NCBI GenBank assembly: GCA_900128565.1 | Contig: LT635942.1 | Coordinates: 1 to 35,938 of the forward strand | Source: Stramenopiles sp. TOSAG23-6 | Lineage: Eukaryota | DNA length: 35,938 bases | Direction of reading: 5' to 3' | Part shown: in pieces, positions 1 to 35,938 of the stretch | Numbering within the stretch: the first letter of the stretch is position 1 | How the letters are laid out: each line of letters opens with the position of its first letter | Translations under genes and position numbers: made by a program | The notes under the pieces: generated by a model | Databases searched by the model: none | The model's input: the letters and a program-made list of their open reading frames with translations, nothing else | What the model was told of the DNA's origin: nothing

Positions 1-1
1 G

Positions 2-1132
2 AAAGAGTGTTCGAATCAGTCTATCTTGAAAGGAATTACGGGATACATAGAATATGCGGCAAACAATGTTGAAACCAACACTAGTATTAAATGTGGTGCC
101 AAGTGTATATCTACAACGACCTGTGTTGGGTTCGGCTTCGGTGTAGGGAGTTCCGAGGCTGGGAAATGTACTTTATATCCGGGTTATTGTCAGTTTGCGG
201 ACAATAACAATTGGGATCAATATCATGCCGTTTCGAAACTTCCAAGAACCAAAGCATTACTTACAAGTTTTTTATCGTGGAAGTTTTCGAATTGTCTTGC
301 TGCGCAGACCTGGTCAACATTATTTACAAAGCCTTATGCGGCAGAAGATGCCTTGATATCTGGAAAAGAATATCATTATGTCCCTTTATCAGAGTATGAT
401 GTCATAAGTGGCCCAGTGATAGGAGACACGATGACTAAGCATCCTGCCGAGGTTGTGATGAAAGCTCCACTCTGTCAAGGTGGAGTGTGGAGATTGGAAA
501 CTCCTAATCTTGTTGCTGTTCGGCAATATTTTATTAATGATCTTGAACTTATGGGTTCTGGACTAAGTGTTGGTGAGTATATACACGAGTATATACATAA
601 AAAGGATATAAACCCAAACACAAATCTTATGTGGAGCGGTAAACATGTTGACCATGACGGTAATATAGCAGGTGTACATCAAAAAAAATTTAAGATCTTA
701 GGATGGAGTTTAAATTCGTCAACTGGCGATGTCAACTCTTCGAGAAATCCAATTTATTTTTATCGCGATGGCACTAAATTTACATTTGAAAACAGTCTTG
801 GTTTTACCGACAATACACCTGAAATCCCTGTAGGTTACCAAGTGTATATGGCGTTTGCTGTTCCAAAGGAATTATCCGCCAAAATTCCGGATATGTTCAC
901 AACATGTTCAAAATCATCATTACTGCCGTTTACCTGGGGGGTAGGTCAAAATCTTGGACGCCGTGTTGGTAGTTTTGGGCCTTTATTTTTACCAGAAGGA
1001 TCTTCATTGATTACAGACACTCGAAACTGTGATAGTGATTGCCGAGAATTGACATTTACTAAATCAGTAAATGGAAAATTTTCTCTCGGTGACGAAATTT
1101 GTGAAAAGGCGTCATGCATGTACGAACCCTAA
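2..1132 (+). CDS. Giant gene segment 1 (PAN/apple domain and Cys-rich region); open at the window edge
   Basis: PAN pattern C-GAKC-xxxxx-C-VGFGF...C-TLY; no stop from position 2 to TAA 1130-1132. Confidence 0.75.
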   Translation, partial: KECSNQSILKGITGYIEYAANNVETNTSIKCGAKCISTTTCVGFGFGVGSSEAGKCTLYPGYCQFADNNNWDQYHAVSKLPRTKALLTSFLSWKFSNCLAAQTWSTLFTKPYAAEDALISGKEYHYVPLSEYDVISGPVIGDTMTKHPAEVVMKAPLCQGGVWRLETPNLVAVRQYFINDLELMGSGLSVGEYIHEYIHKKDINPNTNLMWSGKHVDHDGNIAGVHQKKFKILGWSLNSSTGDVNSSRNPIYFYRDGTKFTFENSLGFTDNTPEIPVGYQVYMAFAVPKELSAKIPDMFTTCSKSSLLPFTWGVGQNLGRRVGSFGPLFLPEGSSLITDTRNCDSDCRELTFTKSVNGKFSLGDEICEKASCMYEP

Positions 1133-19100: not shown

Positions 19101-22100
19101 GTGCAGCAAATGTTGTAAAGTTATTGAATGCTATTTCAGTATCTGATAATCGGAAATTTATCAACACATTTAGTCGTTTAATTCTTGCTCGATCATCGTT
19201 ATCAAAAGTTTCTCCTTCGCCAAGTTATACAATCAAACAAGTCAGATTGTTGACTGATTTGCAAAATCAAACGGTTTATCCTCGTGTTGGTCTTACATTT
19301 GAAGATTCGCGTATACAAAATGAATTATGTGATGTGGATTCTTGTGGTAATTGTAATACTAAGGTGGCATGTGCTAGCAAGAATTGTGTATATGAAGAAA
19401 GTGCGGCTGTGTGGGCGAGCTCAGCATATTCTCCAGTGGGTCAAAAAGGTTCTCTTTCTAATGATGCTACATTAATGACTGTCGCGTGCAACTCTGTCAC
19501 TGAAATTGCTTTTAGTGAAAAAATTTGGACAGATCAGTGTAGCCCTTCAAGTTATAGTGCTTGTGTCGCGGCTTCTTCAACGAATGGTTGTGGGATTTCA
19601 TCTTTATTTGTCAATAGGTGTCATGCACGCACTAATGGTGTACAAGCTTCATTAATTGGTTCACCTGCCAATGCTGCAGCTGGTGGATCAACTATTTGTG
19701 CAGACGCTCGTCTTCAAAGTAGTTTCTGTGTTTCCAAATGTTCCGTATCTTCTTGTAGCTCTTGTGTAAATTCAACAGAATGCAGCAATGTCGGGTGTAG
19801 ATGGGTAACACATTTTACTAACAGCACTAGTGGTACTATTATTGAGAGTTGCGAAGCTCCAAATCCTCCATGTAGCGAGGAAAATTGTGATATGTGTAAA
19901 TCCGTTAATGATTGTTCGACTGTATCTGGTTGTGAATGGTTTGATGATGCACCTTATTCTCGCTGTCGTCCTGATCAATGCAAGGGTGATTGTAGTGCTT
20001 GTGTTAGTTTAGTAGCTGCAAGTATTTCAGCTGAAAGTAGATGTAAAGAACGAGAAGTAGGTACAATTGCGTCTTATGAAGAAGGAGTTCGTTGTCATTG
20101 GTATGCACAAGAGTCTACATGTTTAGATGTCTGTAATCCATGGAACTGTGCAGGGTGTACAACAAAAACCGACTGCAATGCAGACACTACGTATTGTACA
20201 TGGAATGATACGAGTAGTACTTGTTTGGCTAGAAGTACTGACTGTGGAATGACGTGTAATGAGGGAGGAAATGGTGTTCTTTGTGTGCCACAAAATTGGG
20301 TATGTGATGGTACATCTGATTGTCCAGTATCAGAATGTGACGAAAGGGCTTGTACTGATGAAGCTTTTGATATATCTAAAGCTAATAACTTGAGTAACGG
20401 TTGTTGTCGTTGGACAACATACCAGATGAAGTGTATGTCAACATGAATTTCATTTTTTTTTTTCGTACCAAATTTTGCAAGTAAAGATTTTTTATTGACC
20501 AATTTTGAATGTTAAATATTTTTCCACAATACATGTAGTGGCAACACATTTGCAAGAGCTCCTGCTGGATATCATATATCTGATGAAGTTTGTGCGGATT
20601 ATTGTTGTACTACTGCAAATTGCAAGGTGTGGCAATGGAAACCTATATTTGGTTGTTTTGTTGGAGATCCTGCAATTTGTGGTGTTGACGAAAAGGGGGA
20701 AACTTCAACGAGTGGTTGGGAAGGTGGATATAAATCAAGTTCATCGTATACTCTACCTGTACCCGCTAGCGCACAAGTTGCGTGTACGAGTTCGCAAGGT
20801 GAATGTGGAGATGGATCATGTTATGAGTTATATGCTCAATGTGATGGCGTTGACGATTGCGATACTGGTGCAGATGAGTCAGATTGTGGCATCAATGAAC
20901 TTGAATTGTCTGCCAGTTGCAGAGGCATAGTTAAAGTGTATCACGGTAATAAATGGGGAACAATTTGTAACGAAGGTTGGACAGCTCTTAGTGCTAAAGT
21001 TGTATGTGCCCAACTTGAGTGTGGTGGAGTGGTAAATCACCAAGATTTGACATTTGGTCTTGGAGAAGGCCAGATTCACTTGAAAAATGTACAATGTAAT
21101 GGACTTGAAAATAATCTATTTGAATGTTTGACTTCAGATATGAATGGTAATCCGTTTAGATGGGGCGCATCTGGGTGTACCCACGAACAAGACGTTGCCA
21201 TCGTTTGTCAAAATGGTGTACAAAAACCTCCAACGTGTGCGCAGTTGGGTGGTCATTCAGAGTGTGATCAAAATGAATATTGTGGTTTTGGTGGAGCATC
21301 TGATCCATCATGCCTTCCACACGAGGAATGTTGTATTTATCAAGATACATTTAACCAGGGAGCTTGCCCTCATGTTTGTGAAGATTTAGGTTGTACAGAA
21401 CATCGAGGTGCCAACGGTTGCAACACCGATCAGTTTTGTAGTACCACTGGGTCTTGTATGAATCTAGATCAATGTTGCTTCTTCAAGTCTGAGGCCGTTG
21501 GTGGTGCCTGTCCTACAGATTGTACAGGTAAAGAGCGTTGCGAAGGGAAATTACAAAGAGAATCCGTGGGTAGTAAATGCGGTGAATGTAGTCCTTCCTA
21601 TTCAGGGCTTCCTGGAATGGGTAACACTTTATGTACATCAGCGATGACCCCGAGTTCATTTTATCCAAATCCAGTATTTGCTCCATTTTCAGCACAATCC
21701 GCAGGGCCCAGATCACGTTTTGCTGTCGCTGATATTAATAATGATACTTTTGATGATATAGTTATTGGTGGTAAAGCTTCGAAAGGTGAACCCTTGGTGT
21801 ATATGGCTTCAACATCTTGTGGGAAATGGTCTGAGAAAACAGGCAACGAAAATCCATTTCAATACTCTTCAGATGGAAAATCAGGGTTAGTTTTAATTGG
21901 AAGTACGACACTTGGTGAAAATCTTTCTCCCTCATTTGTAGACTTTAATGGAGACGGGTTACAAGATTTATTTGTCGGGACTTCAACTACTATTAGATAC
22001 TTAGAAAATATCACTGCTAGTGGAGTGATAAAGTTTAAAGAAAATGTTGATCAAAACCCTTTTAAAAGCAACCTTCCTTCAAATGGGAAAGATTTCTATG

Positions 22101-25100
22101 TTGTATGGGCTGATCTAGATCAAGATGGTGATTATGATGCTACTATAGGGAACGCTGCAGGCGAAATTGTTGTGTACCGTCGTGATAGTGTTAGTACGTT
22201 AACGAAACTTGAGGAGAAAGATGTAATATGCACTGGAAGTAATGTCAAATGTAAAACGTATACTAAAACTGACTGTGAAAAAGATGCTGCTTGTAGTTTA
22301 GTTTCAAACCCAAACGAAAATCCCTTTTTTTCAGCCAGAAATACCCAAGATTTTGCATTTTCCAGTCTAAAGAGCACGACAATTGCATGGACAGATGTAG
22401 ACACAGATGGTGACTTGGATGCTGTTGTTGGAGATCAACTTGGTTCCTTATTCTATTTTGAAAATATTGGAATGAAAGGCTTAATAACTTTTAAAATTGG
22501 TGGTAATGGTACATTTTTTGAAAATGAAGTCATCGTAAGCAATAATGCAGTTGCGACTGTTGAAAAATGGGTTCCGAGTACCCGGAGTCTTCACGTAAAG
22601 TATGATGGTATGGGATTTCTCACATTCGCAAAGGATGTTGCTGTAGTTGGTCCCAGTGGGACATGGACGACTGAAACTTTTGTCAGTACAATACATTTAA
22701 TTGCTCAAATTGGTTCTGTCAATCCTTTCAATGGGATAATGACACTTGAAAATGTGGCTCCTACATGGATTGATATAGATTGTGATTGTGACATGGATTT
22801 GTTAGTCGGTGGTTCTGCATCTGTAGCTACTGGTGCATCATGTGCTAGTGAAGATCCATCAACAAATTATAAATTATTCAAAAACATCGGTGATACAAAA
22901 CCATCTGTAATGGCAAGGCGTGAAGGGAGTTCAAATCCATTCTTTAGTCTACTGAGTGCTCGTATATCATTCAGTGCACCCGCATTTGTTGATATCGATG
23001 ATGATGGCGACTTTGACTGCTTTGTTGGTACAAAAGAAGGATCAATTGAATACTTTGAAAATATAGGTAGTCCGACAAATCCAGTTTTTACTCATCAAAC
23101 AAGCTCGTCTAACAATCCACTGAGTATGATTAGCGATACAAATATTTATTATACATACCCCGCATTCTTTGATATTGATAAGGATGGTGATTTGGATTTA
23201 TTTATTGGAACGGAAAAAGCGGGTATTAAGTTTTATCTAAATGAAGGTACAAAGAAAGTACCGAAATTTCGGTTAGAAGTAAACGATAATCCTTTGAGAA
23301 GTGCAGAAGCAACTCTGACAACACCATTAAAATTTTCTCGAATTGTTTTTGCCGATCTTGACGGTGATGGAGAATCAAGTTTGTTTATCGGTGATTCAAC
23401 TGGAAGTATTCGAAGCTTGAATAAAGTGTATTGGAAATGGGATTATTGTACAATTGGCACTCAAATCCGCCATTCAACAAAAGCAAATGATCTCGGCCAG
23501 CGAGGCATAATTGTTGGTATTTTAGGCTCGAAATTTTCTATAATATTTGAAGGGTCATTAGACCGAATACTTGTATTACACAACACGAAAGCATCTTGTC
23601 AAAATGATGCCAATAGGTCCTGCGTAGTTGTTGCTAAGAATCGGCATCCATGCCTTCCAGATGTAGCCTGTTGGAAAAATGATTTTACAACGAATGCTTA
23701 TTTTGCTGAACATTGCAAAGATTCATGGACGACTGCATCGGCGACTGGAGTACCTTTAATTGATGTCAATGTTGGCTCACTTGCTCAGCCTTCTTTTGTA
23801 GATATTGATGGTGATGGCGACTTGGATGTTTTCCTTGGCATGACGTCATTCTTTGAAAATATTGGATCATCACTGAGTCCAGTGATGGAATATCGTGATG
23901 CTGTGATGCCATTTGGAGCTCTTGATTTTGGCGTTTTTACTAGTATATCCTGGGTTGATATTGATGGGGATAACGACCCTGATGCGTTTGTGGGAGATAG
24001 CGAAGGAAATATTCATTATTTTAAAAATGTCAGAATTACAGACGAAAATATTGAGATTATTAGTGTTGACTTTTTATCGTATTCTTCAACATATGGAGTT
24101 ACCGTATCTCTGAATTGGACTTCTAGCGAAATGGTTGAGAGTAGTACTTCAAAGGCATCTAATTCGCCTCAATATGTTGTCTACTATGCTGACTCTCAGG
24201 ATAAGGCGGGAAAATGTGGGGCTTCAAATAGAAATTGCGGTCGTGTGTTCCCAGGAATGCGGACATCTACGTCAATTTCTGGTTTAGATCCGAATGTGTC
24301 TTATTATTACTCAATTGGTGTATTACAAGCATCCCATGCTGAAAACGGAGCAGTGTATCTTCCTGTTAAACCACCCATTGACTGCAAAAAAAAAAAAAGT
24401 AGAAGATTATCAAATGGTAATCATGGGCGGAGATTATCTAGTGGTGGTGCATCAAAGGTTCTACCTCCTTTACCCCCAGATATAACCAAAGCATATTTTG
24501 TATACAGAGGTCCTGATCCAGACCCCAAAGCAAATGGTTCTTGTTCAGGTAAACTCTCAACATCTATCGTATGTACAACTTTAACCACGAAGGATACATG
24601 TATAGCAATTGATGGTTGTACATTTAGCGATTCTCATTTGGTCGGTGGTAATATTTTATCTATTGATAGTATTAGTGGCAAGGATCCTAATCGGAAACCA
24701 GGATTGTATGAAGTATCTGTGTTTAGTGGTGGAAGCACTAATAGCAAAGGGGCCGTTTTTACAATTAAAATTGACAATGAAAGTGGTAAGGGAGGCGCAG
24801 TAAGCGTTTTCATAAAAAATGCTGGTGTAAAGTATAAGACAAATGATACAATTACTGTTGCCGATTCTCAGTTAGGTGGTCTTGGTGGAGTAGCCTTAAC
24901 ATTTGATGTAGCAACTGTATCCATTGCGCTGGTGGCATCTGGTGTTGTCAGTGCCGGTGAACCTTCCTGTTGTGCGGCAACTACTTCATATTGTTTTTCG
25001 GGATCTTCATGTGTTCCACCAAATACAGGAATGCCTAATAATATCGTCCGCGGTACAACAAAAATAACAGATGTTTGTCCTGCTAAAAAAGTTAATGGAA

Positions 25101-28100
25101 ATGCAACTCTAATGTGTAATAATAAAAAACGAGAATTATTGTTAACGTCGTGTACAGGAACGCCAAAGCCATGTCAACATACAGATTTCCAAAATAATAA
25201 ATCTAGGTGTCCAACCTCAAACGGGTGTGTATACACTGTATCTGGATTTATTGCACAACTTGCGCTTGCTTGGCGAAATGCTAATGCAAAACTTAAATCT
25301 GGTGAAATTCGGTTAGATGTTAAGAACTATCGTGTAAGATGGTCAAAAGATGCTTTGATGAAGTCGAATTCAAAATGTATAGATTTATCAAGTTCTCCTA
25401 CGCCTCCACCATGTGATCAAATTTTTGTCAATTTGGGTAATGCATGTGACAATAGAGAAGGCTGTTCCTGGAATTCCGATGGGTCATGTAAAGGAACGGC
25501 AACCCCATGTTCCGATGCTTCAATGCAAGGTGATAAAAACAAGTGTACAACATTTAATGGCTGTAAGTATATAGAACAAGAGAAAATCACACAGGCGACA
25601 ATACTAACAACAACATCACGTAACCCAGTTACAGCAGATGGTGATTGGTACGTTGACGTTACTCCTTATAGTGTACTTGGGGCAGGAGTACCAACAACTA
25701 TACTAAAAGTACAATGTGGTCCAGGTCAATTTAGACCTTCATCCAATGAATGGCTGAATTTACCATTTAGTTTAATGAATCGAAGCAATGGTTGTGCTCA
25801 TTGTGTTCCTGGCAAGTATCAGAAGAATGCAGGGAAATCATCCTGTTCAATATGTCCGGCAGGGAAGTTTAATCCAGATATTGCATCGACCGACTCTAGT
25901 GCATGTGTTCCGTGCATTGCAAAAACATATTGTCCTGCTGGTTCATCGGAGCAGCTACCTTGCCCAGCAGGATTTTATTGTCCACAACCCAATATTAAAT
26001 CTCTGTGTGCTACAAAGGGTTCAAAGTGCCCGCAAGGTTCTACTCAAGAAGGCACTTGTCCTTCAGGTAGTTTTTGTTCTGATCCAACAAAGCAAAAGAA
26101 ATGTGTTTTAGGCGTTGATGATAAAACAACAAGTGGTGTAGATGAAAGCATAGGTATACATTGCCCTGCTGGTGTAACTGTCCCCATTCAATGTGAAGCT
26201 GGTTACATTTGTTCAAATCCATCAACGAAGGTTAAATGCAATGATGGGTTTTATTGTCCATTAGGATCTATTTCACAGACTAAATGTTTGAAGGGACACT
26301 TTTGTCCTACTCCTCTCGAGCAAAAGGCGTGTACGAGAAACTATTGTGTAAAGATTGATGACAAAGGTAATCAGACAAAAGAACCTCTTATTAAGGATAA
26401 AACTAAATGTATCAGTTCATGTAGTGAGAGTGCAATATCCGTTGAACTCTTATGTAAAAACGTATGTACGAAATCGTGTACTTCAAGTGATGGTACAGGT
26501 GTAACAGAATGTAGTAATGCTAATTTATATTTCACAGGATCTTGTGACAATCCAAAATCTGCAGATATCAAAGATTCATGTGGTCATTGTAGCGTTGCTG
26601 TTAAAAAGACGAATACAGAATGTTCAGATGTAAAAGGAATTTGGACTGCAGGTGTATGGACAGAATCTACAAAAGAAACCGTGGATGCTGAAGTTAATTG
26701 TAAAAATGCCCACTCATCTTGTATATATGTAGGTCCACCAGTTGGCTCGCAGGAGGTTTGCTCGAAAGGTGATCATACAAAGACAGGAATATGTTTACCA
26801 AATTCACCGACTAATTGCTACAAAACAAGCCAGAGTGCTTGTACAAATGTTGCAGGATGTGTATGGAAAACAAAAGTACAATGTGCGGCACAAGATTCTT
26901 CGTGTTGTTTACATAATTGTACTGACGTTGCACAGACATCAACTTCATGTGGGAAGATCTCAGGTTGTAGCTGGAAAAATTTGGCATGGACTCCACGTCA
27001 GTGGACGAATCATTTATGGATAGAGGCAACATTATGCGAAGCTGGTTATACACAGCAAATTATATGCCCAGCTGGCTATTCTTGTCCCACCGTATCATCA
27101 AAAACTGCATGTCCAGCGGGAACTTTTTGTGAAGCTGGCTCTAGTAATCCAGTAGAATGTCCCGCGGAGTTCTATTGTCCTCGAAGTGATACGCAACAGT
27201 TATGGGGTTTAACGAAACGCCCTTGTGTCGTAGAATTGCATCATTGTCCTCCTAAATCTGTGACAGCAAACATTTGTCTTGCATCTGCTTGGTGTCCAGT
27301 ACCTAGTAAACAAGAAACAATAACAGTAAAAGTTATAGGTACTGTACGTGGATATGATGTAACATCTGGCCTTCGATATCAAAATGCTATCATTGATCCC
27401 ACTGTAGCTCCCACAAATTACGGTAGTGATACAAACACAAGAAAACTTTCTACAAACACAAGAAAACTTTCTACTCGAGACTGTTTAAGCCCTGGCCAAT
27501 GTGAATTGTTTGACAATACGCCTTGGGATAGTGGTGGTGTAATTCCAATCTGGGTAGAACTTTCCCCAAATGAATTAAAAGGATTAGATAAAGGCACACG
27601 GTTTACAAATAGACATATAGTAACTTGTGAAATTCATACTACGAATACTGCTAATGTACAGCTCGAAGGTGCTCAAATTGAAATAAATCCGTCCAATGGA
27701 ATTGGAGTTTTTAGTAATTTCAAAATTATTATGCCTCCTGGAGGAACTGCAACTATGTATATCTCATGTACTTCAGTCCCTAATGTTCGCGTATCACCAC
27801 TCAATGAATATCCTATTGATGGATTTATGAAAGGTATAGTTGATAATCTAAAGGTAGGAGAAGGTCAATCTGAAACTAATTTCTACAAAACAATTGCACC
27901 AAAAAGATATTTTTCGGTAAAACTTCGCCCGTGTACGTTTTTCATCATTCATTTCAATTTTAGGTGTTTCATAGAAAATTCCATATTTAACAAAGTCTAA
28001 TTTCTAATTTCACATATTTTTTCACAATACATGTGTTCGAGGGGAAACCATTGTTGAAAATATTTGTACAAAATGTGTTTCTGGGAAATATTCCTGGGGA

Positions 28101-31100
28101 TTTCCTGTCATTGCGCCTCCAGCTTCAGATGCAACGATTTGTTTGGACTGTCCAAATCCTGGTGGTTATTGTCCTGGCGGTGATGTTATTGTTGCACAGA
28201 AAGACTATGTATTTTTTTATCATTCATTTCATTTGTTTTTTCATACGAAATTTTGTACCTAACAATTTAATTTTGCGACATATTTTTCAATATACATTGG
28301 AGATCGGGTAAGAATTCAACTTCTTTCTACTCGTGTTTTAATGATTTTGAATGTCAAGGACACACTAAAGATACTGATAATAGCATGTACACTAGTGCGA
28401 ACTTCACCATGCTAGAAGGATGCAGTGAAGGACATGGTGGTATTCTTTGCTCTGTTTGTATTGATGGTTATGTCATGGCACCTGATGAAACGTGTCACAC
28501 ATGTCCTCCGCGTGAATACACTGCAATATTATTTATTATTGTAATAGGGGCTATAATACTCTTTTTACTTAATTTGTGTTATTTTACTCGTAAACCAGAA
28601 AATGGACCTGACTATGAACATTTGCGCCAGCCTGTGGTGTCACCTGGCACTGCAAGGAGAATGACGGCTCATCATTTAAAAACGAAGTCAACCACTCGTA
28701 TTGCAGACTTAATGCTTAATGCAAAAGTTGATTACAATGCCTTTATTCAGAGAATAGAGGAGGACGATTGCATTACTTCGAGTTCCGATGAAAACGACGA
28801 TGAGCCAAAGTCTGCCGAACTGTTACGTAGAATTCGAATTCGCGACCAAATCGATTCACAAATTGTTGATGTTAATGATATATTCTTTGGTGGTTATATT
28901 GGTGCTTCTGTTGCTGGAAATACTGCACATCGAATGCAAGAATTACAAGTAATGAATAGTCGACAAAGACATCACGCTTCAAAGACTTCAAAAACTTCAA
29001 AGGAAAGAAAAAACTCACTTTCACCAAAAAGAGGTGATTTTGTAGCAAGTAACCACAACCACAACGGGTCAAATATTCAAAATGCATCCAATCTAGGTGC
29101 TGTGAGTTATGGTGTAGGTGAACTTGCCGATTCGAAATCTCGAGTTGCTCTGGAAGATGTTCGAAGATCTATGTTAGATACAGGTTTGGTTGACGCTCAA
29201 GATATTGCAGGAGCAGTTGTTGGCGATGAAGCAGTCCAAGACGTTGTTGGTGCAGATACAGAAGTTGATGCAAAAGAGATTGTCATGGAAAGATTAAGTA
29301 TGGCAATGAAAAGTGAAAAGGGAACTGAAATAAAATCTGCTGTGATAAATCGCGTCGGTGCTGGCTCGGGTGCTGGGGAGGAAAAATCAGCACTTAGTCA
29401 AGCATTTGAGGATGCTACGTCCGGTGCACTTGATACTGGCTTGGTTGACGTTGAAGATATGGCAGGAGTTGTTGTGGGTGAAGATACAGTGGAGGATATT
29501 GTTGGAGCGGATACAGAAGCGGATGCAAAGGAAATTGTTGCAGAAAGATTAAAAGCTGCAGTGGAAAGTGAAAAGGCAGATGAAATGAAAGAAGCAATTC
29601 GTGGGGCAGCTGAAACCAAGAGTGGCGGACCATCTGATGAGCCTATAAAACAAAACAATAATGATTCACTACCAGGTGATGATGATGGAAATTTTTCAGA
29701 TCTTGACATGGAAGCACTAAATGCTCAAATCAATGAACTTGCTGAGGAAGAATTTTTATACGGTGCAAATGAAGCAGGNGAGGCNGCAATGGTTGAAGCG
29801 AAATCGGAGTTAGCAAAAATGAAGGGTATATTAAGCGATGCTGATGAGTATTGGACTTCAATCATTGCAAAAACAAAGATTCTCATTGGTTATTTACAAA
29901 TTGTGTCACAATTCCGTTTTGTATTGGATGCACGTTTTCATTTTAATTTTTTATCTAAATTTTGTTTTCGTACGACATTTTGTACCTAACAAATTTTGAA
30001 ATTGTTTTTGAAATATTTTTTCACAATATATGTACCTTGGCCAAATTTATATACTGGTTGGATGAATTTACTTGACGCATTAAATCTGGATTTAATTGAC
30101 ATTTTCGGAAATATCAATGTTTGTCAATTGTCCGTACCATTTACCGAAAAATTTATATTTATAATTCTATTTTTTCCAATTACAATACTACTGCTCTTAC
30201 TTGCACGAGCGTCTGCATTTGGATGCCGTGCGACCAAAATATATTTTGGCAAACAAGCACAATTCTTCAAGTTTAGTGTTACAGATAAGTTTTTCAAAAT
30301 TACAAATTTGATATACTTTTTACTTTATCCTTCGGTAGCATCTAAAACATTTATGGTGTATAAATGTGAAGAAGTTGGTGGTGTCGAATATCTCCGACGT
30401 CAAATGAATGTAACATGTAGTTGGGACCCTAAAAAAAGTCATTGGGCATACTTAGGTATGGCAGCAATAATTTTTGGCATTGGCTATTTAATTGTAATTC
30501 CTATTTGTTACATTTTTCTATTATACCGAAATCGCCAAATTTTAGCACACCCTCATGATGCACCTCATAAAGTTCCAGGCCTCTTAGAAGACGAAGAAGT
30601 AATGCGACGATACAGAAAACGCCTCAGTCGTTTTGGAAATGTATTTAGTCCATATACATATGGTTACTGGTGGTTTGAATGGTTTACACTACTTCGAAAA
30701 CTTATGCTTACAGGTGGTCTTGTTTTGGTTTCCGAGGGAAGTGCCGCGCGGATTAGTTTAGGTCTGGTAATTAGTTTCTTCTATCTTGTTGTAAGTGCAA
30801 ATATTGCACCATTTTACGATCCTTATGATGATATGCTTAGTCAATTAGCATCGATATTGCTTTTTTTGACATTGTTATGTGGACTCGTCTTAAAGATGGA
30901 TTTTGCTGAGGAAGGTAGGTATGAAAATTCTGTAATTGATGCGGTATTGATGATAATGAATATCGGAATTGTACTTGTTGGCATTTTTATTCTTATCATG
31001 GCAATACCACCTTTACGGCGACGTATTGAAGATTTTATTCACCGCCGTAAAGTGGAAAGGAAAAGGAGAATAACATTTGCTGGTCGTAAATTTGTTCGGA

Positions 31101-31555
31101 AAGTCCCCTCAAAATGGGATTTAGCAAAAAAGGCTGAAGAGGAGAGAGAAATTGACGAAAAATTTGGATTGAAGCGAAGTTCTACTCGTGCTATTCCGAT
31201 ATCACCTCAAGTATTAGAATTAAAGCAATTAAATGATAGCAGTTTCNATTCGTCTGATTCAGATGGGAGTCAAAATCAGCTTCATTTACTTCGTCGGAGT
31301 CAGAGGCACAAGTCAATTATCCGCAGAAATAGATTAAATAGCCCCGTACAATCTAAGAAACACACACGTCGTGATTTAGGTTGGTCATCTGGAGTATTTA
31401 GATCAAAGAAAGAACGTTCTGAATTTGAAATGATCACATTGGATTCAGATGGAAATGATTTGAATTCTCCTGAGCCACTTTTAAGAACGAAACGATTAAT
31501 GAAAACTAAAAGTTTTATGCGACCAAATATTTTAAAGGATGACGATAAAATATGA
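2..31555 (+). CDS. Giant multidomain cysteine-rich cell-surface/receptor-like protein, 5'-partial, about 10,400 aa or more. Joined model: ~2-1116, ~1121-2562, ~2563-6841, ~6843-20432 (three +1 breaks), then exons 20535-27932, 28033-28208, 28298-29929, 30032-31555
   Basis: Consecutive same-strand ORFs with continuous domain content. The frame is open from position 2 (KECSNQSILKG). Domains recognisable by motif: many PAN/apple, F5/8C-like, PA14, LamG, EF-hand, C-type lectin, Sushi, PSI-like, LDLa, SRCR, FG-GAP, FN3, GCC2/GCC3 repeats and C-terminal TM helices. Only the last piece has a plausible end (TGA 31553-31555 followed by AT-rich UTR). Confidence 0.8.
1071..2567 (+). CDS. Giant gene segment 2 (F5/8C-like domain with ShK-like insert, PAN, start of PA14)
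   Basis: EYVQASF...IAVQYS...W...F..PVSSKHFRI discoidin-like pattern; CIDHCDSNQMCAGVSYNYDEGKCY PAN motif. Confidence 0.75.
   Translation: MENFLSVTKFVKRRHACTNPKTYVNIETGECSDNGNVWNKKRCCDTKTCSVSMLNSENLDAIASVLVRFNIDSIDDDDKPTFGTTTGTKIERSSGDLESSCNASKEKCADPLFRTKCAASCCENEDAGEYVQASFESERLVGSISVAILSSSWKCDETNQIAVQYSNEGLPSSTWITVATLASRLSKLSNSGDSRKTTVVFKTPVSSKHFRIFMTATPIGCPPSHPYAIAWKSTSKARCYEKNDQYSEVCRYTGSSPAPKGTTWADNQVTCPPSQHIDSIKLKLGSMVFLPPGEASRNVLYKRFVTIELKNSIKLTRKDIVEQTLSGASGVVVHSRTGTIHYLELLGRAEFIPTLNISVSGVDKGEIVFVVNDCGHDQVLLPKTASMNVSCDAISQCIDHCDSNQMCAGVSYNYDEGKCYIRTSVNDGSSIIHRSPIFSTTPCPEGTFYGEYYQSNNLSGSIDWAGCEDKHNEKTRQSVNYMKISSSGVTCGGTALKM
2560..6876 (+). CDS. Giant gene segment 3 (PA14, multiple PAN, CBM6/35-like, phage-like repeat); frame open from 2560, upstream of the listed 2737 start
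   Basis: 2560-2736 translates KCNYFSYDTNKSCDLFKEC... without a stop; PA14 motif YKFIVQADDGSRLWLDGKIIHDQW...HTIKVEMQEYGG. Confidence 0.8.
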   Translation, partial: KCNYFSYDTNKSCDLFKECRSRDWKKFSGTYLYFLGGIYYRDNYTERSFSNHVLSGHKYLNKFSVCYTGDMMIESGVYKFIVQADDGSRLWLDGKIIHDQWNRCCRTWTTYGIEIVGGMHTIKVEMQEYGGRAYINFKWEPDTSQKNSSVNVQSDPFQCFAKRSHNVNIHTSTRESWEPVFASIPQDCQSSGGCANGQIAAVKWIESDTGYKDLAILNEQQLSLEKCKEACYKRGIKSGCKGISYHKKGWGCILESFTVDDTNEKPSTKATCKQISGVLCTSAGANKTTCTSLGSGCSYDDKNSSCINSCTGHTDKTSCENASKNCFFYAAGDIKTLVISVVTGNTINNTVVSLIASQNGRLDEEIVSGTFDSTGYADLNKSSYTNLQNGTSSLVALVNDTDVIEVVGAGKQELNGIYIRDSSTSYKLETDLGLNYYIQESNNHWQLVKKNAGKVTNIFYFAERAKIPHDVRLPPESGWSKNGINGIADGEGDWPAPRLIHEILTSKQNVDIDVISHWVHCGTEHSAETCNCPGGYVRYGAFNRSPVCASKTSIDSSDCVSKFGKQDCPCIYVEKSVRCNNGTFGDPWGGIGKTCQCNTSHLLSADFYFLVSDNVPEAAGKSCAVGSVISTTTSYSLVGQCAVLCRNTKDCRYFVFSGNVGSKACSLFSSCPQNEWYTPGYPNTKMYRLKSELEVKSLTCEYPFDVATSAGRRLTRISDGVCNGVPVKTVKDTSITACESECVNTNNCVTISFCPKESVLCTGNHAGLCNLYLANQCSFVDFVTVGNSGYVTFSMDKSKEDVTPTKLYDLYTGNGAVAFSGVDDQNLNFVVSVPSELCTTGTTATTVDSGTVCCSSTCGNKISTIRCSGSNYTPGTYSGIKAKDVQSSTNGTKASFDITVDKDGNISVCEINNAGIGYEKNDVIQFETNNIGTSGGRDEVTVTSVAGICSQDSTCSTLIGGANSCCPTTIKNNNVECTTSTQSSCVLPQSYNNCGGEGIKNITFRSLVSTNAKISLQVQVNGVTLPKPITAKPAPVGTLNEGDLSWESLMIKGTLRVGTNTISVKIDPSTLFSSDAIAGKLDGQAFETKTNTRLLHCMKACREKANCMSINHSDDNKCELNNQVIGKCNTCNKYSTEGWSYYAKYPTGIAIDSVVISGWPSDLPRPDFQNTFTKFSQSRWIIKRLLAPTGGDALQTGTLSVLKQKCVSNYFNSKVCTSISCDMKTKDSALVLDIDDCTAWYGVKEWVKSDLVISFVLRYSEDFFEPFEGNGKCSGSNDDQVQLTPYYVLPAPERSLDECKEVCLQYELCVGISYADFADVSGTPAICEIAILELDTGKPPDEIEGLPLFGAQSFMTGSSGSNSCSKGTKTDKSGDYSKFQAYRLCSDRNLKLQSDLTPETEHLCSTSEKARKSCFPLTGASYNAPKKNKSPIPTFYIN
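6827..20432 (+). CDS. Giant gene segment 4 (LamG, PAN, F5/8C-like, EF-hand, crystallin-like, C-type lectin, Sushi, PSI-like, LDLa), ending at intron A
   Basis: 13.6 kb open frame; WHHIGATYDG..KLYANG (LamG); DSNASGTLSQDE (EF-hand); YIGL...WKWGD...Y.YW (CTLD); YVCDNDYILSG...TCGVDGQW...PSC (Sushi); CVPQNWVCDGTSDC (LDLa). Confidence 0.85.
20433..20534 (+). other. Non-canonical intron A (GTATGT...AATACAT, 102 nt)
   Basis: T-rich, contains an in-frame stop; removal gives ATG AAG TGT AGT GGC (MKCSGNTF...) and joins the 4539-aa and 2457-aa ORFs in frame; family motifs TTTCGTACC and AAATATTTTTCCACAATACAT. Confidence 0.85.
20535..27932 (+). CDS. Giant gene exon (PAN, LDLa, SRCR, FG-GAP/VCBS propeller repeats, FN3, GCC2/GCC3 Cys repeats)
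   Basis: CDGVDDCDTGADESDC (LDLa); GIVKVYHGNKWGTICNEGW...VVCAQLEC...CTHEQDVAIVC (SRCR); many P.F.DxDxDGDxD repeats; CPAG(F/Y)xC repeats. Confidence 0.85.
27430..27474 (+). repeat. Perfect 21-bp tandem duplication (TNTRKLS x2)
   Basis: tacaaacacaagaaaactttc twice, followed by tac. Confidence 0.95.
27933..28032 (+). other. Non-canonical intron B (GTACGT...AATACAT, 100 nt)
   Basis: Removal gives KLRP-CVRGETIVENICTKCVSGKYSW; ends ATATTTTTTCACAATACAT like the other copies. Confidence 0.85.
28033..28208 (+). CDS. Giant gene internal exon (Cys-rich juxtamembrane repeat), in a frame different from the listed 28033..28311 ORF
   Basis: Translates (C)VRGETIVENICTKCVSGKYSWGF...CLDCPNPGGYCPGGDVIVAQKDY. 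Confidence 0.85.
28209..28297 (+). other. Non-canonical intron C (GTATTT...TATACAT, 89 nt)
   Basis: Removal restores CPGGDVIVAQKDY-WRS, the C.GG......(G/D)YWR motif of this receptor-like family, and sets the frame of the 28385 ORF; contains TTTCATACGAAATTTTGTACCTAAC. Confidence 0.9.
28298..29929 (+). CDS. Giant gene exon (C.EGH.G.LC..C motif, first TM helix, long cytoplasmic loop, start of the next TM)
   Basis: CSEGHGGILCSVCIDGY; hydrophobic AILFIIVIGAIILFLLNLCYF; KTKILIGYLQIV. Confidence 0.85.
29174..29600 (+). repeat. Diverged internal duplication (two ~57-aa copies, period 255 nt) in the cytoplasmic loop
   Basis: LDTGLVDAQDIAGAVVGDEAVQDVVGADTEVDAKEIVMERL vs LDTGLVDVEDMAGVVVGEDTVEDIVGADTEADAKEIVAERL. 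Confidence 0.9.
29930..30031 (+). other. Non-canonical intron D (GCACGT...AATATAT, 102 nt; GC donor)
   Basis: Removal restores YLQIVSQFRFVLD-VPWP; contains TTTCGTACGACATTTTGTACCTAAC and TTTGAAATATTTTTTCACAATATAT; no AG inside the intron or for over 150 nt downstream. Confidence 0.85.
30032..31555 (+). CDS. Giant gene terminal exon: multi-pass membrane domain and cytoplasmic tail
   Basis: Several hydrophobic helices with FLLYPSV...F..Y.C, YL....V.C, FG.VFSPY...YWWFEW..LLRKL.LTG, PFY...DD.L motifs typical of protist Cys-rich GPCR/TRP-C-like receptors. Confidence 0.85.
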   Translation, partial: VPWPNLYTGWMNLLDALNLDLIDIFGNINVCQLSVPFTEKFIFIILFFPITILLLLLARASAFGCRATKIYFGKQAQFFKFSVTDKFFKITNLIYFLLYPSVASKTFMVYKCEEVGGVEYLRRQMNVTCSWDPKKSHWAYLGMAAIIFGIGYLIVIPICYIFLLYRNRQILAHPHDAPHKVPGLLEDEEVMRRYRKRLSRFGNVFSPYTYGYWWFEWFTLLRKLMLTGGLVLVSEGSAARISLGLVISFFYLVVSANIAPFYDPYDDMLSQLASILLFLTLLCGLVLKMDFAEEGRYENSVIDAVLMIMNIGIVLVGIFILIMAIPPLRRRIEDFIHRRKVERKRRITFAGRKFVRKVPSKWDLAKKAEEEREIDEKFGLKRSSTRAIPISPQVLELKQLNDSSFXSSDSDGSQNQLHLLRRSQRHKSIIRRNRLNSPVQSKKHTRRDLGWSSGVFRSKKERSEFEMITLDSDGNDLNSPEPLLRTKRLMKTKSFMRPNILKDDDKI

Positions 31556-31724
31556 AGTTGCTTAAAAGAAATAAATTAAACTTAAGTGAATCATGTATTT
31601 TTCTTTGTAACCATTTGAAAAATAAATATAGTGATAACTCATTTATTTTTTCAATTTTTTCAATTTGTTCATATTTTATTTAATTAACGGATCATTTTTC
31701 GTTGCTCCAGTCCCATTGATTGAT

Positions 31725-33596
31725 TTACAAATCTAAGTGATCTACATCCTGTACATGTATCATTACATTTGAAAACAGGGCATCCTGTAACCCTTCTGAT
31801 AAGTCGTTCTCAAAAATATAGAGATGTTCTACTTTCAAATCCCAATGATAATCTTTAAATTCACCATCAATTTGATTATGCCTTAAATTCAGATGCTCAA
31901 TTTCGTGAGCAAAAAATCCAGCGAAACTTTCCAATTTATTATGAGACAAATTCACGAGTTTGTAAGATTTTATTGGCAATCCATGCACCGTCAGCATATT
32001 AACTCTATAATAGTTATCTGAATCACTGCAAATAATGTTATCCAATTTAGGCAGTGTCGGAAATCCAACAAAATTCTTCATGTGCCCACGGGTTATTTTA
32101 AAAGTATCTAGTTTGTTAAGCAAATTAGGCAAACCAATGAAACTTGAAATTTGTGAATTTTGTATTTCAAGCGAAGTAAGATGTTCCATTTGTTCTGGAA
32201 ATCCGACTAAACTTTTAATCAAGGAACCATCAATTCTCAATGTTTGCAGATGTTGTAATCCTGAAAGTAGAGAAAGTTCACGAAGCCTTTTTCGGGGTAA
32301 GCACATATCGTCAAATTCATATAGACCACCATCAGCACCAAAATATTTACCACCAAAATCCTTAATTAGTTTCGCAACCTTTTTCGATTTCTTGCCAATT
32401 GCAAGACCCATATCTTTCAAGAAATCTTCCTCACTTGATTCAAGTAAGGGTTGAAGATGTCTGAAGAGAGGGCATATTCCACCTTCAAAATGTGGATCAT
32501 CTGCAGCTTTCTCTGAAAATCTCTTGAGCAATACTTTTTTAGACATCACCTCGAGAAGAACCGACGACGCCCTCGAACTTATAAGATAATCACACATATG
32601 AAATAATGTTTTAGAGTCAAATTCCCAAATGAAACTATTGAACAGATCCCCATGTATCTCTTCTTTCGTACTTAATAAATAAGCATGTTCAATCATGCTT
32701 GCTCCAAAACNATGAAAGGACAACGCTTGTTCCTTTAATTTTATCAGGATGTNACGTACATCATCGAATTCCGGATACCTTTCATGACATACATCACTTT
32801 CATATAAATAGTATTGCGCGANTTCCACNGAGATAAAAGGTTGTGCATTTTCTAGTAACCATTTTGCATTTTCCAGATAACGATCTGTATCATCCAGACC
32901 TGCATCNTGTAAAAACAATTTCGCCTTGTCATCATTACCTTTTTGATGTGATAATTTGACCAATTTTTCATTAACACAACGTGTTCCAATATTATTCTCG
33001 AGGTATTTTTCAGGAGGTAGCTGATGCGGATAAACTTTTCTCAAAATAGCCTCAGCGGCAGGCTTAAAAAGTGTCCCCCTTTTATCATCAAAAATATGGA
33101 ACAATCTACTGACACTTTCATCATTGAAGCAAGAAAGCAATATTCTTCTGATATTCACCATACCGAAGAAGTCAGAGGCATTTAGTAAGTTTAAACATGT
33201 CGAAAAATTGCCTTTTGAAGAAAGTAACTGTTTTACCGCTTCGACTGATTCCTTCTCCATCTTTTCTTTTATCTCAAATAAAAATTGAATTGTCTCAGAC
33301 GTTTGTGGTACTGGAATATCCTGTGAACAGTCAAATTCACCGAGTTCAGATAGTTCAGTTACATCCCATGATACCACTACTCGCTTTTCGTCAGAACATA
33401 GGAATGTAACTTTATCATTTTCTGACTCATGTTTTTGTCTTTTGCTGGCGCGAAAAGTACTCTCAGTCCCAGATACATTATCCGCCTCCCCTCGCCAAGA
33501 AGATTGATCAGCTCCTCGCGAGGAATGTATTTGGGAGTAAATGATGGTTGCTGTAAGTAATAGTAGCAACTTCATATTTCGTTTTTTTCCTTGCAT
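31725..33596 (-). CDS. Putative secreted SKP1/BTB-like and leucine-rich repeat protein (start may be Met at 33575); intronless
   Basis: 623-aa ORF; signal-like MKLLLLLTATIIYSQIHSS; KVTFLCSDEKRVVV...IPVP..SETIQFLFE...LLNASDFFGM resembles SKP1/POZ; C-terminal LxxLxLxxNxI repeats. Confidence 0.8.
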   Translation of the reverse strand: MQGKKRNMKLLLLLTATIIYSQIHSSRGADQSSWRGEADNVSGTESTFRASKRQKHESENDKVTFLCSDEKRVVVSWDVTELSELGEFDCSQDIPVPQTSETIQFLFEIKEKMEKESVEAVKQLLSSKGNFSTCLNLLNASDFFGMVNIRRILLSCFNDESVSRLFHIFDDKRGTLFKPAAEAILRKVYPHQLPPEKYLENNIGTRCVNEKLVKLSHQKGNDDKAKLFLXDAGLDDTDRYLENAKWLLENAQPFIXVEXAQYYLYESDVCHERYPEFDDVRXILIKLKEQALSFHXFGASMIEHAYLLSTKEEIHGDLFNSFIWEFDSKTLFHMCDYLISSRASSVLLEVMSKKVLLKRFSEKAADDPHFEGGICPLFRHLQPLLESSEEDFLKDMGLAIGKKSKKVAKLIKDFGGKYFGADGGLYEFDDMCLPRKRLRELSLLSGLQHLQTLRIDGSLIKSLVGFPEQMEHLTSLEIQNSQISSFIGLPNLLNKLDTFKITRGHMKNFVGFPTLPKLDNIICSDSDNYYRVNMLTVHGLPIKSYKLVNLSHNKLESFAGFFAHEIEHLNLRHNQIDGEFKDYHWDLKVEHLYIFENDLSEGLQDALFSNVMIHVQDVDHLDL

Positions 33597-33880
33597 AGAA
33601 CTACTAAGAGGGTAGGTAGACCGTCGGCGTTGCTAAATTTTTTTTAAAATGACGCTGACTCTCGCTCACTCGTAATTACGATTACCCGGTACCAACATTT
33701 TTTGGAGCGCATCAAGCGTTGAATCATGGTACATAGAAAATGCCACAATGTCATTATCTTTTTAATACTGTTTGTTTGGGTTGAACTACACATTGAATAT
33801 TTCTTTTTATATTTCATTTTATTTTCTATACAGTTTGATTCTCTAGCAAGCTACAAAAAAAAAAAACTAACTCCATCAGA

Positions 33881-34150
33881 TTAAAACCAACGCATCATCC
33901 TGCTTAATATACTATTCGACGTATTTACAGTTTCCCTTGTTGCATCACACTCGACTTTTGCACATTCTAAAGATTCTCTCTGCTCTTTAAGTTCCTGCAA
34001 AACATATTGAGCTGTATCAGTTGTACTTTTTACAGTATTCATCATTTCGTTCAAACGATTCTGTTGTTCTAATAGTTTCTCTTTATTCGCCGATAACCGC
34101 TTATCATTTCTACTTGTATTGCTGTTGCTTTCATGTTTTCTAGGTGTCAT
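33881..34150 (-). CDS. Small Qb-SNARE-motif (Vti1-like) coiled-coil protein without a TM anchor
   Basis: LLEQQNRLNEMMNTVKSTTDTAQYVLQELKEQRESL...TRETVNTSNSILSRMMR matches Vti1-type heptads with the zero-layer QRE. Confidence 0.65.
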   Translation of the reverse strand: MTPRKHESNSNTSRNDKRLSANKEKLLEQQNRLNEMMNTVKSTTDTAQYVLQELKEQRESLECAKVECDATRETVNTSNSILSRMMRWF

Positions 34151-34437
34151 TCTTTAGTTGGAAGACATAAAGCACCCTTTTTTTGATTCCAGATTCTTCA
34201 CTATTTTTGCCTTGTCTCATGAGTCATATTCCTCAGTAACTACTGGAAAAAACCTCAGGTAACCAGGTTCAACAACACGATTTTTTTTTGTTTTTTTGAT
34301 GTTTCTGGCCATCAATTTAAATTAAATTTTAATCAATCACACAATGTCATTCGTTCGTTTGTTGCACATGTGTGTCAATCCACTTTACAAGTACTAACTT
34401 TGAATTGTATTCTTTATAGACTTATTACTCCTTTAAA

Positions 34438-35871
34438 ATGCAACACTTTCTAACTTTCATTGTTTACGCCTCCATCATTCAAGGAACATTTTCATGCACT
34501 AATTATATGGTTACCAGAGGTGCATCAAATGATAATAGTACCATTGTGGCGTACAATTCTGATGGGTTTTCTCTATTTGGGTATCTTAAACACTTGCCAG
34601 CACAAGAATATGTCCCAGGAACTTTACGTGATGTGTATGACTTTACAAGTGGCAAATTTTTGGGTTCAATTCCAGAAGTATCGGCTACGTATAATGTGGT
34701 TGGTAACACAAATTCGGAAGGCCTTTCGATAGCAGAAACAACTTTTGATGGAATCGAAAAACTTGCAGAACCATTTCCTGGATCCATACTTGACTATTAT
34801 TCTTTAATGTGGATCACTCTTCAACGTACAAAAACTGCTCGTGAAGCAATCGCGACTATGGACATTTTAACTAGTAAATATGGATATGCGTCGACCGGAG
34901 AGTCATTTTCAATAGCAGATACGAAAGAAGTTTGGATCATGGAAATGATTGGTCGTGGGTTACATGAAAAAGGTACTGTTTGGGTGGCTAGAAAAATTCC
35001 TAATGGCGCCATCTCCGGCCATGCAAATCAGGCACGTATAGAATCCTTTCCTCTCAATTCCACAGATACTCTTTATTCTTCTGATATTTTTGAATTTTCT
35101 AAAAGGAACAATCTCACTGCACAAAATCTACCCAATTCAGAATTTAACTTTGCTCAAACATGTATGCTTTATTTTTTTTTGGTATGAATTTTTTTTTCAT
35201 ACGAAATTTTGTACCTAACATTTTTTTTTTGAAATATTTTTTCAGAATACATTTGACCCTATCACCTCAATTGGTGCACGCGCATGTGACCTTAGGGTAT
35301 GGAATTTTTTTCGTTTAGCTCTAGGCAAACAAAAAGGCAGAAAATTTGCAGATAAATATCTCGAATATGTGAAAGGTTACAATTTAAGTAGACGAATGCC
35401 TCTATGTATGTNGTATTTTTTTTTTAACAAAAAAATCGAATTTATTTTTCGTACGAAAATTTGTACCTAACAAATTTAAGTTTTTTTTTTTTGAAATATT
35501 TTTCAAAAATACATACGTACAAGTTGGTAATAATAAAGTGAGTGTCAATGATACGATGTGGGCGATGAGAGATCGATATCAAAACACGTGGTTTGATCAA
35601 AGTGGTCGTGATAAGCCCGACATTAGTGCAGGGCCATTCCATTCCCTAGTAAGAACAAGACCTTTAGCATTTGAATTGGGACAAAAAAAATATTCATTCG
35701 AAAGGAATGTATGTTTTATTTTTTTTTTTTTTGTATGAATTTATTTTTTATAGTAAATTTTGTACCTAACAAATTTTAGGGTTTTTTTTTTGAAATATTT
35801 TTCCAAAATACATGTTGGTTATCAAGGAACTTTTTTCAACTTTGTTGCCAATAGTCGTGGTCATTTTAAAT
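34438..35871 (+). CDS. Peptidase family C69 (dipeptidase/secernin-like Ntn hydrolase), 3'-partial; exons 34438-35161, 35253-35405, 35515-35708, 35814-35871
   Basis: Signal peptide then nucleophile Cys (TFS-CTNYMVTRGAS); GLSIAETTF, LQRTKTAREAI, YGYASTGESFSIAD..EVWIMEMIG, HANQARI. Spliced continuation FAQTFDPITSIGARACDLRVWNFF...RMPLYV...MRDRYQNTWFD...ERNVGYQGTFFNFVANSR. Confidence 0.92.
35162..35252 (+). other. Non-canonical intron E (GTATGC...AATACAT, 91 nt)
   Basis: Removal gives CAA ACA TTT GAC CCT (QTFDP); using the nearby CAG (35243-35245) gives an immediate TAA. Confidence 0.92.
35406..35514 (+). other. Non-canonical intron F (GTATGT...AATACAT, 109 nt)
   Basis: Removal gives RMPL-YVQVGNNKVSV; full family motifs present. 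Confidence 0.9.
35709..35813 (+). other. Non-canonical intron G (GTATGT...AATACAT, 105 nt)
   Basis: Removal gives FERN-VGYQGTFF; in-frame stop inside; full family motifs present. Confidence 0.9.
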
Positions 35872-35938
35872 GTATGTTTTATGTTTTTTCAAATTCGATT
35901 TTTTTTTCGTACGAAATTTCGTACCTAACGATTTTTTT
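35872..35938 (+). other. Intron H of the same family (5' part; runs off the window)
   Basis: AAAT|GTATGT followed by TTTCGTACGAAATTTCGTACCTAAC. Confidence 0.85.

Follow-up and report, generated by a model that had tools for sequence, protein, structure and literature searches.

A candidate introner-like family of introns with G(T/C)...AT borders in a contig of Stramenopiles sp. TOSAG23-6

Results

Two genes interrupted by eight similar introns

Contig LT635942.1 of Stramenopiles sp. TOSAG23-6 (assembly GCA_900128565.1), analysed over its full 35,938 nt and referred to as the window below, carries a giant gene for a secreted or membrane protein and a gene for a dipeptidase of peptidase family C69, each interrupted by four short introns (copies A–D and E–H, respectively; Table 1). 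The eight introns belong to one sequence family, removal of each complete copy restores the reading frame, and family-like sequence is abundant in an independent DNA sequencing run. No complete copy ends in AG. Taken together, the introns probably represent an introner-like family of elements that bring their own splice signals.

All eight insertion-type interruptions of open reading frames (ORFs) in the window are copies of this family, the remaining three ORF breaks being frameshifts. With a GC content of 15–23%, as compared to 39% in a 7.4-kb exon, the introns stand out from their surroundings, and all copies lie on the + strand, the sense strand of their host genes (8/8; two-sided binomial p = 0.008 by our own arithmetic). 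A weak profile match at 2564–2715 (E value of 3.5) was considered as a ninth, decayed copy and dismissed: the break at this site is a 1-nt frameshift in an A-run, and since the frame is open from position 2560 on and reads as a coding domain, the segment is not a copy.

Table 1. Introns and genes in the window. Borders give the first and last six intron bases; ↓ marks an exon–exon junction; profile E values refer to the search with a profile built from copies C–G.
Feature	Position	Strand	Length	Borders	Phase	Details
Host gene 1, giant secreted or membrane protein	1..31555	+				open at window start; introns A–D
Intron copy A	20433-20534	+	102 nt	GTATGT...ATACAT	1	profile E 2e-5; decayed; palindrome segment retained, CTAAC box gone; TTGAC motif 36 nt from 3′ end
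Intron copy B	27933-28032	+	100 nt	GTACGT...ATACAT	1	profile E 1.5e-5; decayed; TTAAC where others have CTAAC
Intron copy C	28209-28297	+	89 nt	GTATTT...ATACAT	0	3-nt deletion in 3′ box
Intron copy D	29930-30031	+	102 nt	GCACGT...ATATAT	0	start set by homology to P0134
Intron copy E	35162-35252	+	91 nt	GTATGC...ATACAT	1	
Intron copy F	35406-35514	+	109 nt	GTATGT...ATACAT	1	one N
Intron copy G	35709-35813	+	105 nt	GTATGT...ATACAT	0	within conserved ERN↓VGYQGTFFNFV
Intron copy H	35872-35938	+	67 nt (5′ part only)	GTATGT...	1	cut by window end; profile E 3e-7
Leucine-rich-repeat protein gene	31725-33596	-				intron-less
SNARE-domain protein gene	33881-34150	-	89 residues			intron-less; V-SNARE_C, E 8e-8
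Host gene 2, peptidase family C69 dipeptidase	34438..35938	+				E 1e-36; signal peptide; introns E–H

The introns form one sequence family

Alignment of the eight copies together with their flanks revealed a likeness that spans the full length of each copy and ends at the exon borders, in two unrelated genes. This is the pattern that defines introners, i.e. introns of unrelated genes that are alike up to both borders and not into the exons, with 5′ region resembling 5′ region and 3′ region resembling 3′ region (PMC12130899).

Two shared boxes carry much of the signal. The 12-mer TTTGTACCTAAC occurs five times in the window in exact form, always on the + strand, where 0.01 occurrences are expected and none of 100 shuffles reached five; with two mismatches allowed, eight hits were found versus 4.4 expected, which is indistinguishable from chance. 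The 3′ box ATATTTTTYMANAATAYAT has six occurrences (A, B, D, E, F and G), likewise all on the + strand and with 0.01 expected, and each of them ends on the last base of its intron; in the seventh complete copy, C, 3 nt are deleted from the box.

An nhmmer profile made from copies C–G alone and used to scan both strands of the window recovered H, B and A (E values in Table 1), with the next match at an E value of 0.2 and no other below 0.1. A previous sequence-only reading of this DNA had proposed one repeat family in unrelated genes with shared boxes, a narrow length range of 89–109 nt and uniform sense orientation, all of which the present analysis bears out. The range that it assigned to the family, 28209–35938, does contain C–H, but A and B lie upstream. 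Within the window, the profile built from C–G returned no antisense copy and no copy outside genes.

The same reading had described A and B as clearly more decayed than the rest. This holds, but the difference in global pairwise identity is modest (0.61–0.72 between A or B and the other copies vs. 0.68–0.81 among C–G). Copy A keeps 17 of the 18 bases of a palindrome-containing segment and has lost the neighbouring CTAAC, and B reads TTAAC; the CTAAC box is therefore not strictly obligatory.

Copies are clustered within their host genes. The exons between them measure 176 nt (28033–28208), 153 nt (35253–35405), 194 nt (35515–35708) and 58 nt (35814–35871), and other exons of 7.4 and 13.6 kb are free of any copy. 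In the C69 gene, all four copies fall into the second half.

No Rfam family matched the introns, and searches of public collections for further copies gave zero matches in viral_contigs and zero in metagenome_contigs. A single match of the 20-nt box in prokaryote genomes (genome_contigs; L001 6187–6206, – strand) was put down to chance, as it lies inside a bacterial gene and has no flanking family sequence.

Anatomy of a copy

From 5′ to 3′, a copy comprises a GTATGT-like donor, preceded by an exonic T, a variable T-rich spacer, the palindrome-containing segment, a branch-type box, a T-run and the 3′ box. The palindrome-containing segment, TTTC(G/A)TACGAAATTTT, is 17–18 nt long. The branch-type box GTACCTAAC is invariant in the six copies C–H, and a YTRAY motif lies 34–44 nt from the 3′ end in 7/7 complete copies, including the decayed ones (36 nt in A, 42 nt in B). 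The 3′ box comprises 19 nt, ATATTTTTYCAMAATACAT, the final base of which is the final base of the intron.

Introns start with GT in seven copies and with GC in one (D), and the donor reads GTATGT in 4/8. The exonic T precedes the donor in 8/8 copies, within an exonic AT in 6/8, so that the intron-terminal AT is directly repeated at six copies and its T at all eight; the downstream exon starts with GT in 4/7. Direct repeats of 2–4 nt across the junction are present in all seven complete copies. In six of these, a helix of 5–6 bp can form between the six bases surrounding the donor and the six that close the intron; D allows only three contiguous pairs. Junction repeats and pairing ends have both been described for transposon-derived introns (PMC11282704, PMC7789003).

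RNA folding gave stabilities above those of shuffled sequences for E (z –3.3) and for D (z –2.5, calculated with an earlier choice of start) alone, and A, B, C and G, i.e. four of the six folded introns (F was left out), folded no better than shuffles. Centroid folds show the helix between the ends for A, C, E and G.

A second donor-like sequence, GTATGA, is located 20–25 nt inside E (35182–35187) and G (35733–35738). In E, it is predicted to pair with TTCATAC in the palindrome segment, giving a hairpin of 7 bp. This inner GTATGA might serve as an alternative donor or be left over from the structure of the element.

Intron borders lack AG

Where the introns are cut was deduced from reading frame and homology, from which we infer that the eight are spliced. 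With A, B and C excised as G..T, the frame of the giant gene remains open. Removal of E, F and G yields a C69 protein that aligns to nine homologues with zero gaps at the three junctions. For the giant gene, the yardstick was P0134, the protein model of a relative (1,968 residues, ~60% identical in conserved parts), which aligns collinearly over the junctions of B (LRPC↓VRGE) and C (KDY↓WRS) and fixes the start of D at 29930, where the window encodes FRFVLD↓VPWP and P0134 reads FRFVLEVPWP. D hence begins with GC and not with GT. Two other starts of D were dropped, namely 29934 (GTTTTC), which breaks the frame, and 29921 (GTATTG), which keeps the frame and leaves a 3-residue gap relative to P0134. 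In sum, the joined protein is gap-free against homologues at six of the seven junctions (B–G). The protein models P0002 and P0134 are collinear across junctions, which has no bearing on whether the relatives have introns there.

Cut in this way, the 3′ end is AT in 7/7 complete copies and AG in none. Exon and intron both end in T in every copy, so that a register one base further left, TG...(C/T)A, is equally allowed in all seven. A register of AT...AC is permitted only in C, E, F, G and H, and no register yields AG. Within 30 nt of the intron end, an AG is present only in copy E, 7 nt upstream and out of frame; AG acceptors were rejected, as none is compatible with the frame or the homologue alignments. 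It follows from cuts at (A)T↓G(T/C)...AT↓ restoring the coding frame that the acceptor is not AG. In their GT or GC donor, YTRAY motif and long T-runs, the introns resemble U2-type introns; in their end, they do not.

Spliced products were sought among near-identical proteins, and none was found. Exon–exon joints of the C69 gene were absent from the 15 joints listed, with 219 further joints outside the list, for three RNA runs, X7, X8 and X11, whose contigs miss exons 2–4, so that this absence carries no weight.

Abundance in independent sequencing runs

A search for sequencing runs gave 20 from eight studies. Excluding probable source runs, we used one DNA run, labelled seawater metagenome (X3), and the above three RNA runs, together representing four studies, and compared them with window positions 32908–35938. 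In X3, unique flanks had a depth of 5.7–7.7 (9 and 15 in two flank bins). The bins holding E, F, G and H, in contrast, summed to depths of 5,221–84,706, which mix strains and perhaps species and do not equal copy number per genome; we read these sums as thousands of copies in the sampled population. X3 contributed 7,480 contig pieces at least 90% alike, with 1,791 pieces at ≥99%, 3,017 at 95–99% and 2,672 at 90–95%. At the copy borders, the loose ends agreed poorly (0.38–0.78), which points to many different flanks.

One X3 contig (record 6), whose depth of 5.2 equals that of the unique flanks, runs from inside E through the next exon. Intron E is therefore present in the bulk DNA of an independent sample. 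A precise intron-less joint was not among the X3 joints listed, which is a weak test of insertion polymorphism. The RNA runs contained 1,130 (X7), 55 (X8) and 2 (X11) family-like contigs, which could be unspliced RNA or carried-over DNA.

Two positions varied within the family in X3. About half of the summed depth had G instead of A at 35220, just after CTAAC (as in copy H), and about a quarter had A instead of T at 35899, which suggests subfamilies.

Host genes, neighbors and sequence state

GC content along the window ranges from 33 to 42%, and the composition is eukaryote-like. The product of the giant gene has Laminin_G_3, Sushi, LDLa, SRCR and FG-GAP domains, a TRP-like multi-pass C-terminus and a weak match to DUF7630. 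Its frame is disturbed by three apparent 1-nt frameshifts (1071–1132, ~2557–2567 and 6827–6876) in A or C homopolymer runs, with open frames that overlap or abut, and the window contains ten single Ns. As frames of up to 13.6 kb stay open, these irregularities look like assembly errors rather than pseudogene decay. P0134 itself has ~45 unrelated residues (~1530–1575) where the window encodes ~110 conserved transmembrane residues at 30100–30400; a possible cause is an intron of the relative that was wrongly modeled and has no counterpart in the window.

The 3′ end of the C69 gene lies beyond the window. Its closest relatives share 64% and 61% identity, named eukaryotes (a bolidophyte and a haptophyte) 54–56% and Bacteroidota ~54%. 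The gene family may have been transferred into eukaryotes, in which case its introns would be later gains.

Between the two host genes lie two intron-less genes on the opposite strand (Table 1). In the SNARE-domain ORF, the V-SNARE_C match extends to the last residues, and no transmembrane segment follows in any frame up to the next gene. RNA contigs of run X7 span positions 33855–34278, over this ORF.

Discussion

A probable introner-like family with its own splice signals

We favor the view, with a probability of roughly 0.6, that the eight introns represent an introner-like family of non-autonomous elements that carry their own splice signals and whose older copies keep mainly the 5′ end, the branch-like motif and the 3′ box. 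A short (~90–110 nt), AT-rich, non-coding repeat would have multiplied to thousands of copies in this organism, its presence inside coding sequence being tolerated because each copy would supply the signals for its own removal from RNA: a G(T/C)ATGT-like 5′ end, a branch-type motif, T-runs and the 19-nt 3′ box. Spread would have taken place by insertion, with AT as a possible target and a duplication of 2 nt; this would account for the AT↓...AT↓ arrangement, and removal of the element plus one repeat would then restore the original codons. For this removal, a U2-type spliceosome with relaxed or retuned recognition of the 3′ site may be responsible. The AT acceptor may be positioned by the fixed 3′ box or by base pairing between the ends. 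In canonical spliceosomes, the penultimate intron A, which is kept here, contacts the branch adenosine. Decay of the older copies A and B would have spared the stretches that splicing requires.

Three observations suggest descent over constraint alone: the copies share a palindrome segment without a known splicing role, copy A retains this segment while its branch box has mutated away, and X3 holds very many near-identical pieces. Constraint is also visible, as the 3′ box that is intact in A and B and the GTACCTAAC that is invariant in C–H are probably parts needed by splicing. The alternative posed by the sequence-only reading, an introner burst or a set of obligatory cis-signals, thus holds in part on either side, with traits of both descent and constraint.

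Several points weigh against an introner-like family. Splicing is read from frame and homology only, and the X3 depths, as sums over strains and perhaps species, provide no per-genome copy number. Neither presence/absence polymorphism nor a longer parent element was seen in the window and the listed X3 joints. The window likewise has no intergenic or antisense copy, although only ~2.9 kb of it is not + strand gene. With inverted terminal repeats of 4–6 bp, counting two exonic bases, and a direct repeat of 2 nt, the copies are far below the classic hallmarks of miniature inverted-repeat transposable elements (MITEs), i.e. terminal inverted repeats of ~10 bp or more and a family-specific target duplication. 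Pairwise identity in the window is only 0.61–0.81, and conservation in blocks could come from constraint alone. Finally, that 8/8 introns are of this type also fits a reading in which the shared sequences are obligatory signals.

Under that latter reading, the splicing machinery would need the internal box and the 19-nt 3′ box in every intron, and the likeness of the introns would reflect constraint and not recent multiplication. Besides the exclusive use of this intron type, it draws on the block-wise pattern of conservation, in which an invariant GTACCTAAC in C–H and the other boxes are separated by variable T-rich spacers, and on a 3′ box that is free of mismatches in six of seven complete copies, among them the decayed A and B. 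Speaking against it, the 31-kb reading frame remains intact around copies A and B although CTAAC is missing from the former and altered in the latter; the 17–18-nt palindrome segment is without known splicing role; and 1,791 X3 contig pieces at least 99% alike are more uniform than signals alone would require. A need for ~60 nt of fixed sequence is not known for any spliceosome. We consider this explanation unlikely.

More doubtful is a spliceosome-independent excision akin to that of the nonconventional introns of euglenids and diplonemids, with paired ends and junction repeats setting the cuts. Features of this kind are described for those introns (PMC6221363, PMC11282704) and recur here in the non-AG 3′ end (7/7), the junction direct repeats of 2–4 nt (7/7), the end pairing of 5–6 bp (6/7) and the end helix in the centroid folds of A, C, E and G. 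However, nonconventional introns are reported to have no conserved borders and no pyrimidine tract, and to carry CAG/CTG at positions +4 to +6 and –8 to –6 (PMC11282704). The introns of the window instead start with GT (7/8) or GC (1/8), GTATGT being used in 4/8, and possess a YTRAY motif and long T-runs; CAG/CTG motifs are absent, positions +4 to +6 being TGT-like. Pairing is also not universal, given that D has only three contiguous end pairs and that four of six folded introns did no better than shuffles.

Introns of the minor spliceosome (U12-type) combine an (A/G)TATCCTT donor with a TCCTTAAC branch box near the 3′ end. Read two bases further left, C, E, F, G and H are sequence-equivalent to AT...AC introns, and the internal CCTAAC loosely resembles the U12 branch consensus. 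This register is not uniform, though, reading GT...AC in A and B and AT...AT in D. Moreover, the donors are GTATGT-like and without the ATCCTT core, the box is 34–44 nt from the 3′ end and thus far beyond the short distance typical of U12-type introns, and T-runs are prominent, whereas U12 introns have no distinct pyrimidine tract (PMC11282704). We regard a U12-type origin as very improbable. Elimination from DNA rather than RNA, as for the internal eliminated sequences of ciliates, would suit short, AT-rich, intragenic segments with inverted ends and short junction repeats, but is scarcely credible given that a bulk X3 contig joins E to the next exon at flank depth (5.2), that strict sense orientation (8/8) points to a constraint at the RNA level, that the reading frames need no ciliate genetic code, and that the borders are not TA↓...↓TA, save by chance in F.

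Comparison with known intron systems

Budding yeast, Giardia and Trichomonas have introns with a GTATGT donor, a near-invariant TACTAAC-like branch box and a long fixed 3′ motif; in these intron-poor eukaryotes, introns are few, end in AG and are unlike each other outside the signals. The introns described here share the donor, the branch box and the long fixed 3′ motif, and differ in their non-AG end and in a likeness that extends beyond the signals.

The introners of Micromonas pusilla and Aureococcus anophagefferens are short non-autonomous DNA transposons with GT/GC–AG borders, in which the AG stems from a 3-nt target duplication (PMC11282704). As in those species, we find similar short introns in unrelated genes, probably numbering in the thousands, with element-borne splice signals, junction repeats and inverted ends (PMC11282704). 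In contrast to their AG end, 3-nt duplication and clear terminal inverted repeats, the elements described here have an AT end, a 2-nt repeat and ends of 4–6 bp, and are AT-rich. The small AT-rich introns on the outlier chromosome of Mamiellales are not a match, being 40–65 bp long and without conserved motif (PMC3491373). Introners have further been reported from dinoflagellates and many aquatic lineages (PMC12130899, PMC9860276). Those of Amoebophrya, also a marine protist, similarly comprise repeated introns with non-canonical ends, direct repeats over the borders and inverted repeats that pair the ends (PMC7789003). Splice dinucleotides in Amoebophrya are highly diverse and without a dominant pattern, and its inverted repeats measure 8–20 nt and its direct repeats 3–5 nt (PMC7789003). 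The present family instead has uniform G(T/C)...AT borders in 7/7 complete copies and combines a 5′ end resembling that of yeast with a branch box and a fixed 3′ box of 19 nt.

In the tunicate Fritillaria borealis, 95% of introns are non-canonical, with AG/AC and AG/AT ends (10.1101/2025.08.15.670264). Common to both systems is a non-AG acceptor of A plus pyrimidine; the Fritillaria introns stem from non-autonomous transposon ends, and their removal is attributed to U2-type machinery (10.1101/2025.08.15.670264, PMC11282704), as we propose for the stramenopile. The Fritillaria donor is mostly AG and its families are many, whereas here the donor is GT or GC and one family was seen. Euglenid and diplonemid nonconventional introns, finally, share non-GT–AG borders, junction repeats, end pairing and a suspected transposon origin with the introns of the window, but are described as devoid of conserved borders and pyrimidine tract, where we find conserved borders, T-richness and a branch-type box; those of hemistasiids have G/C-rich inverted ends (PMC6221363, PMC12621601, PMC11282704).

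This family stands apart from the known systems listed above by its uniform G(T/C)...AT borders, by a donor and a branch box of canonical appearance, and by a fixed acceptor box of 19 nt. A literature search on ‘GT-AT’ introns and introners found no paper, the supplementary tables of introner surveys being outside its reach; broader searches brought up analogues and not the family itself. The family may already be described in such supplements, or in work that treats single-cell genomes of marine protists whose introns are non-canonical.

Implications

No route to mass intron gain is better documented than introners. In most known cases, GT–AG is retained or the end dinucleotides are chaotic; the present family joins a donor and branch box of canonical appearance to a single, fixed non-AG acceptor. 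In the most far-reaching version, one introner family would have displaced, or come to form, essentially the whole intron complement of the organism, with a spliceosome that picks the 3′ site by a 19-nt, ACAT-ending box instead of AG, and hence a uniform genome-wide GT–AT code; we put this forward as a speculative extension that is unlikely to hold. If the abundance in X3 reflects one genome, there would be thousands of copies, and both the choice of the second-step site without AG and the adaptation of a spliceosome to an invading element would become testable in a single natural system. As a practical consequence, gene finders based on GT–AG will yield broken models for nearly all genes of this organism that contain introns.

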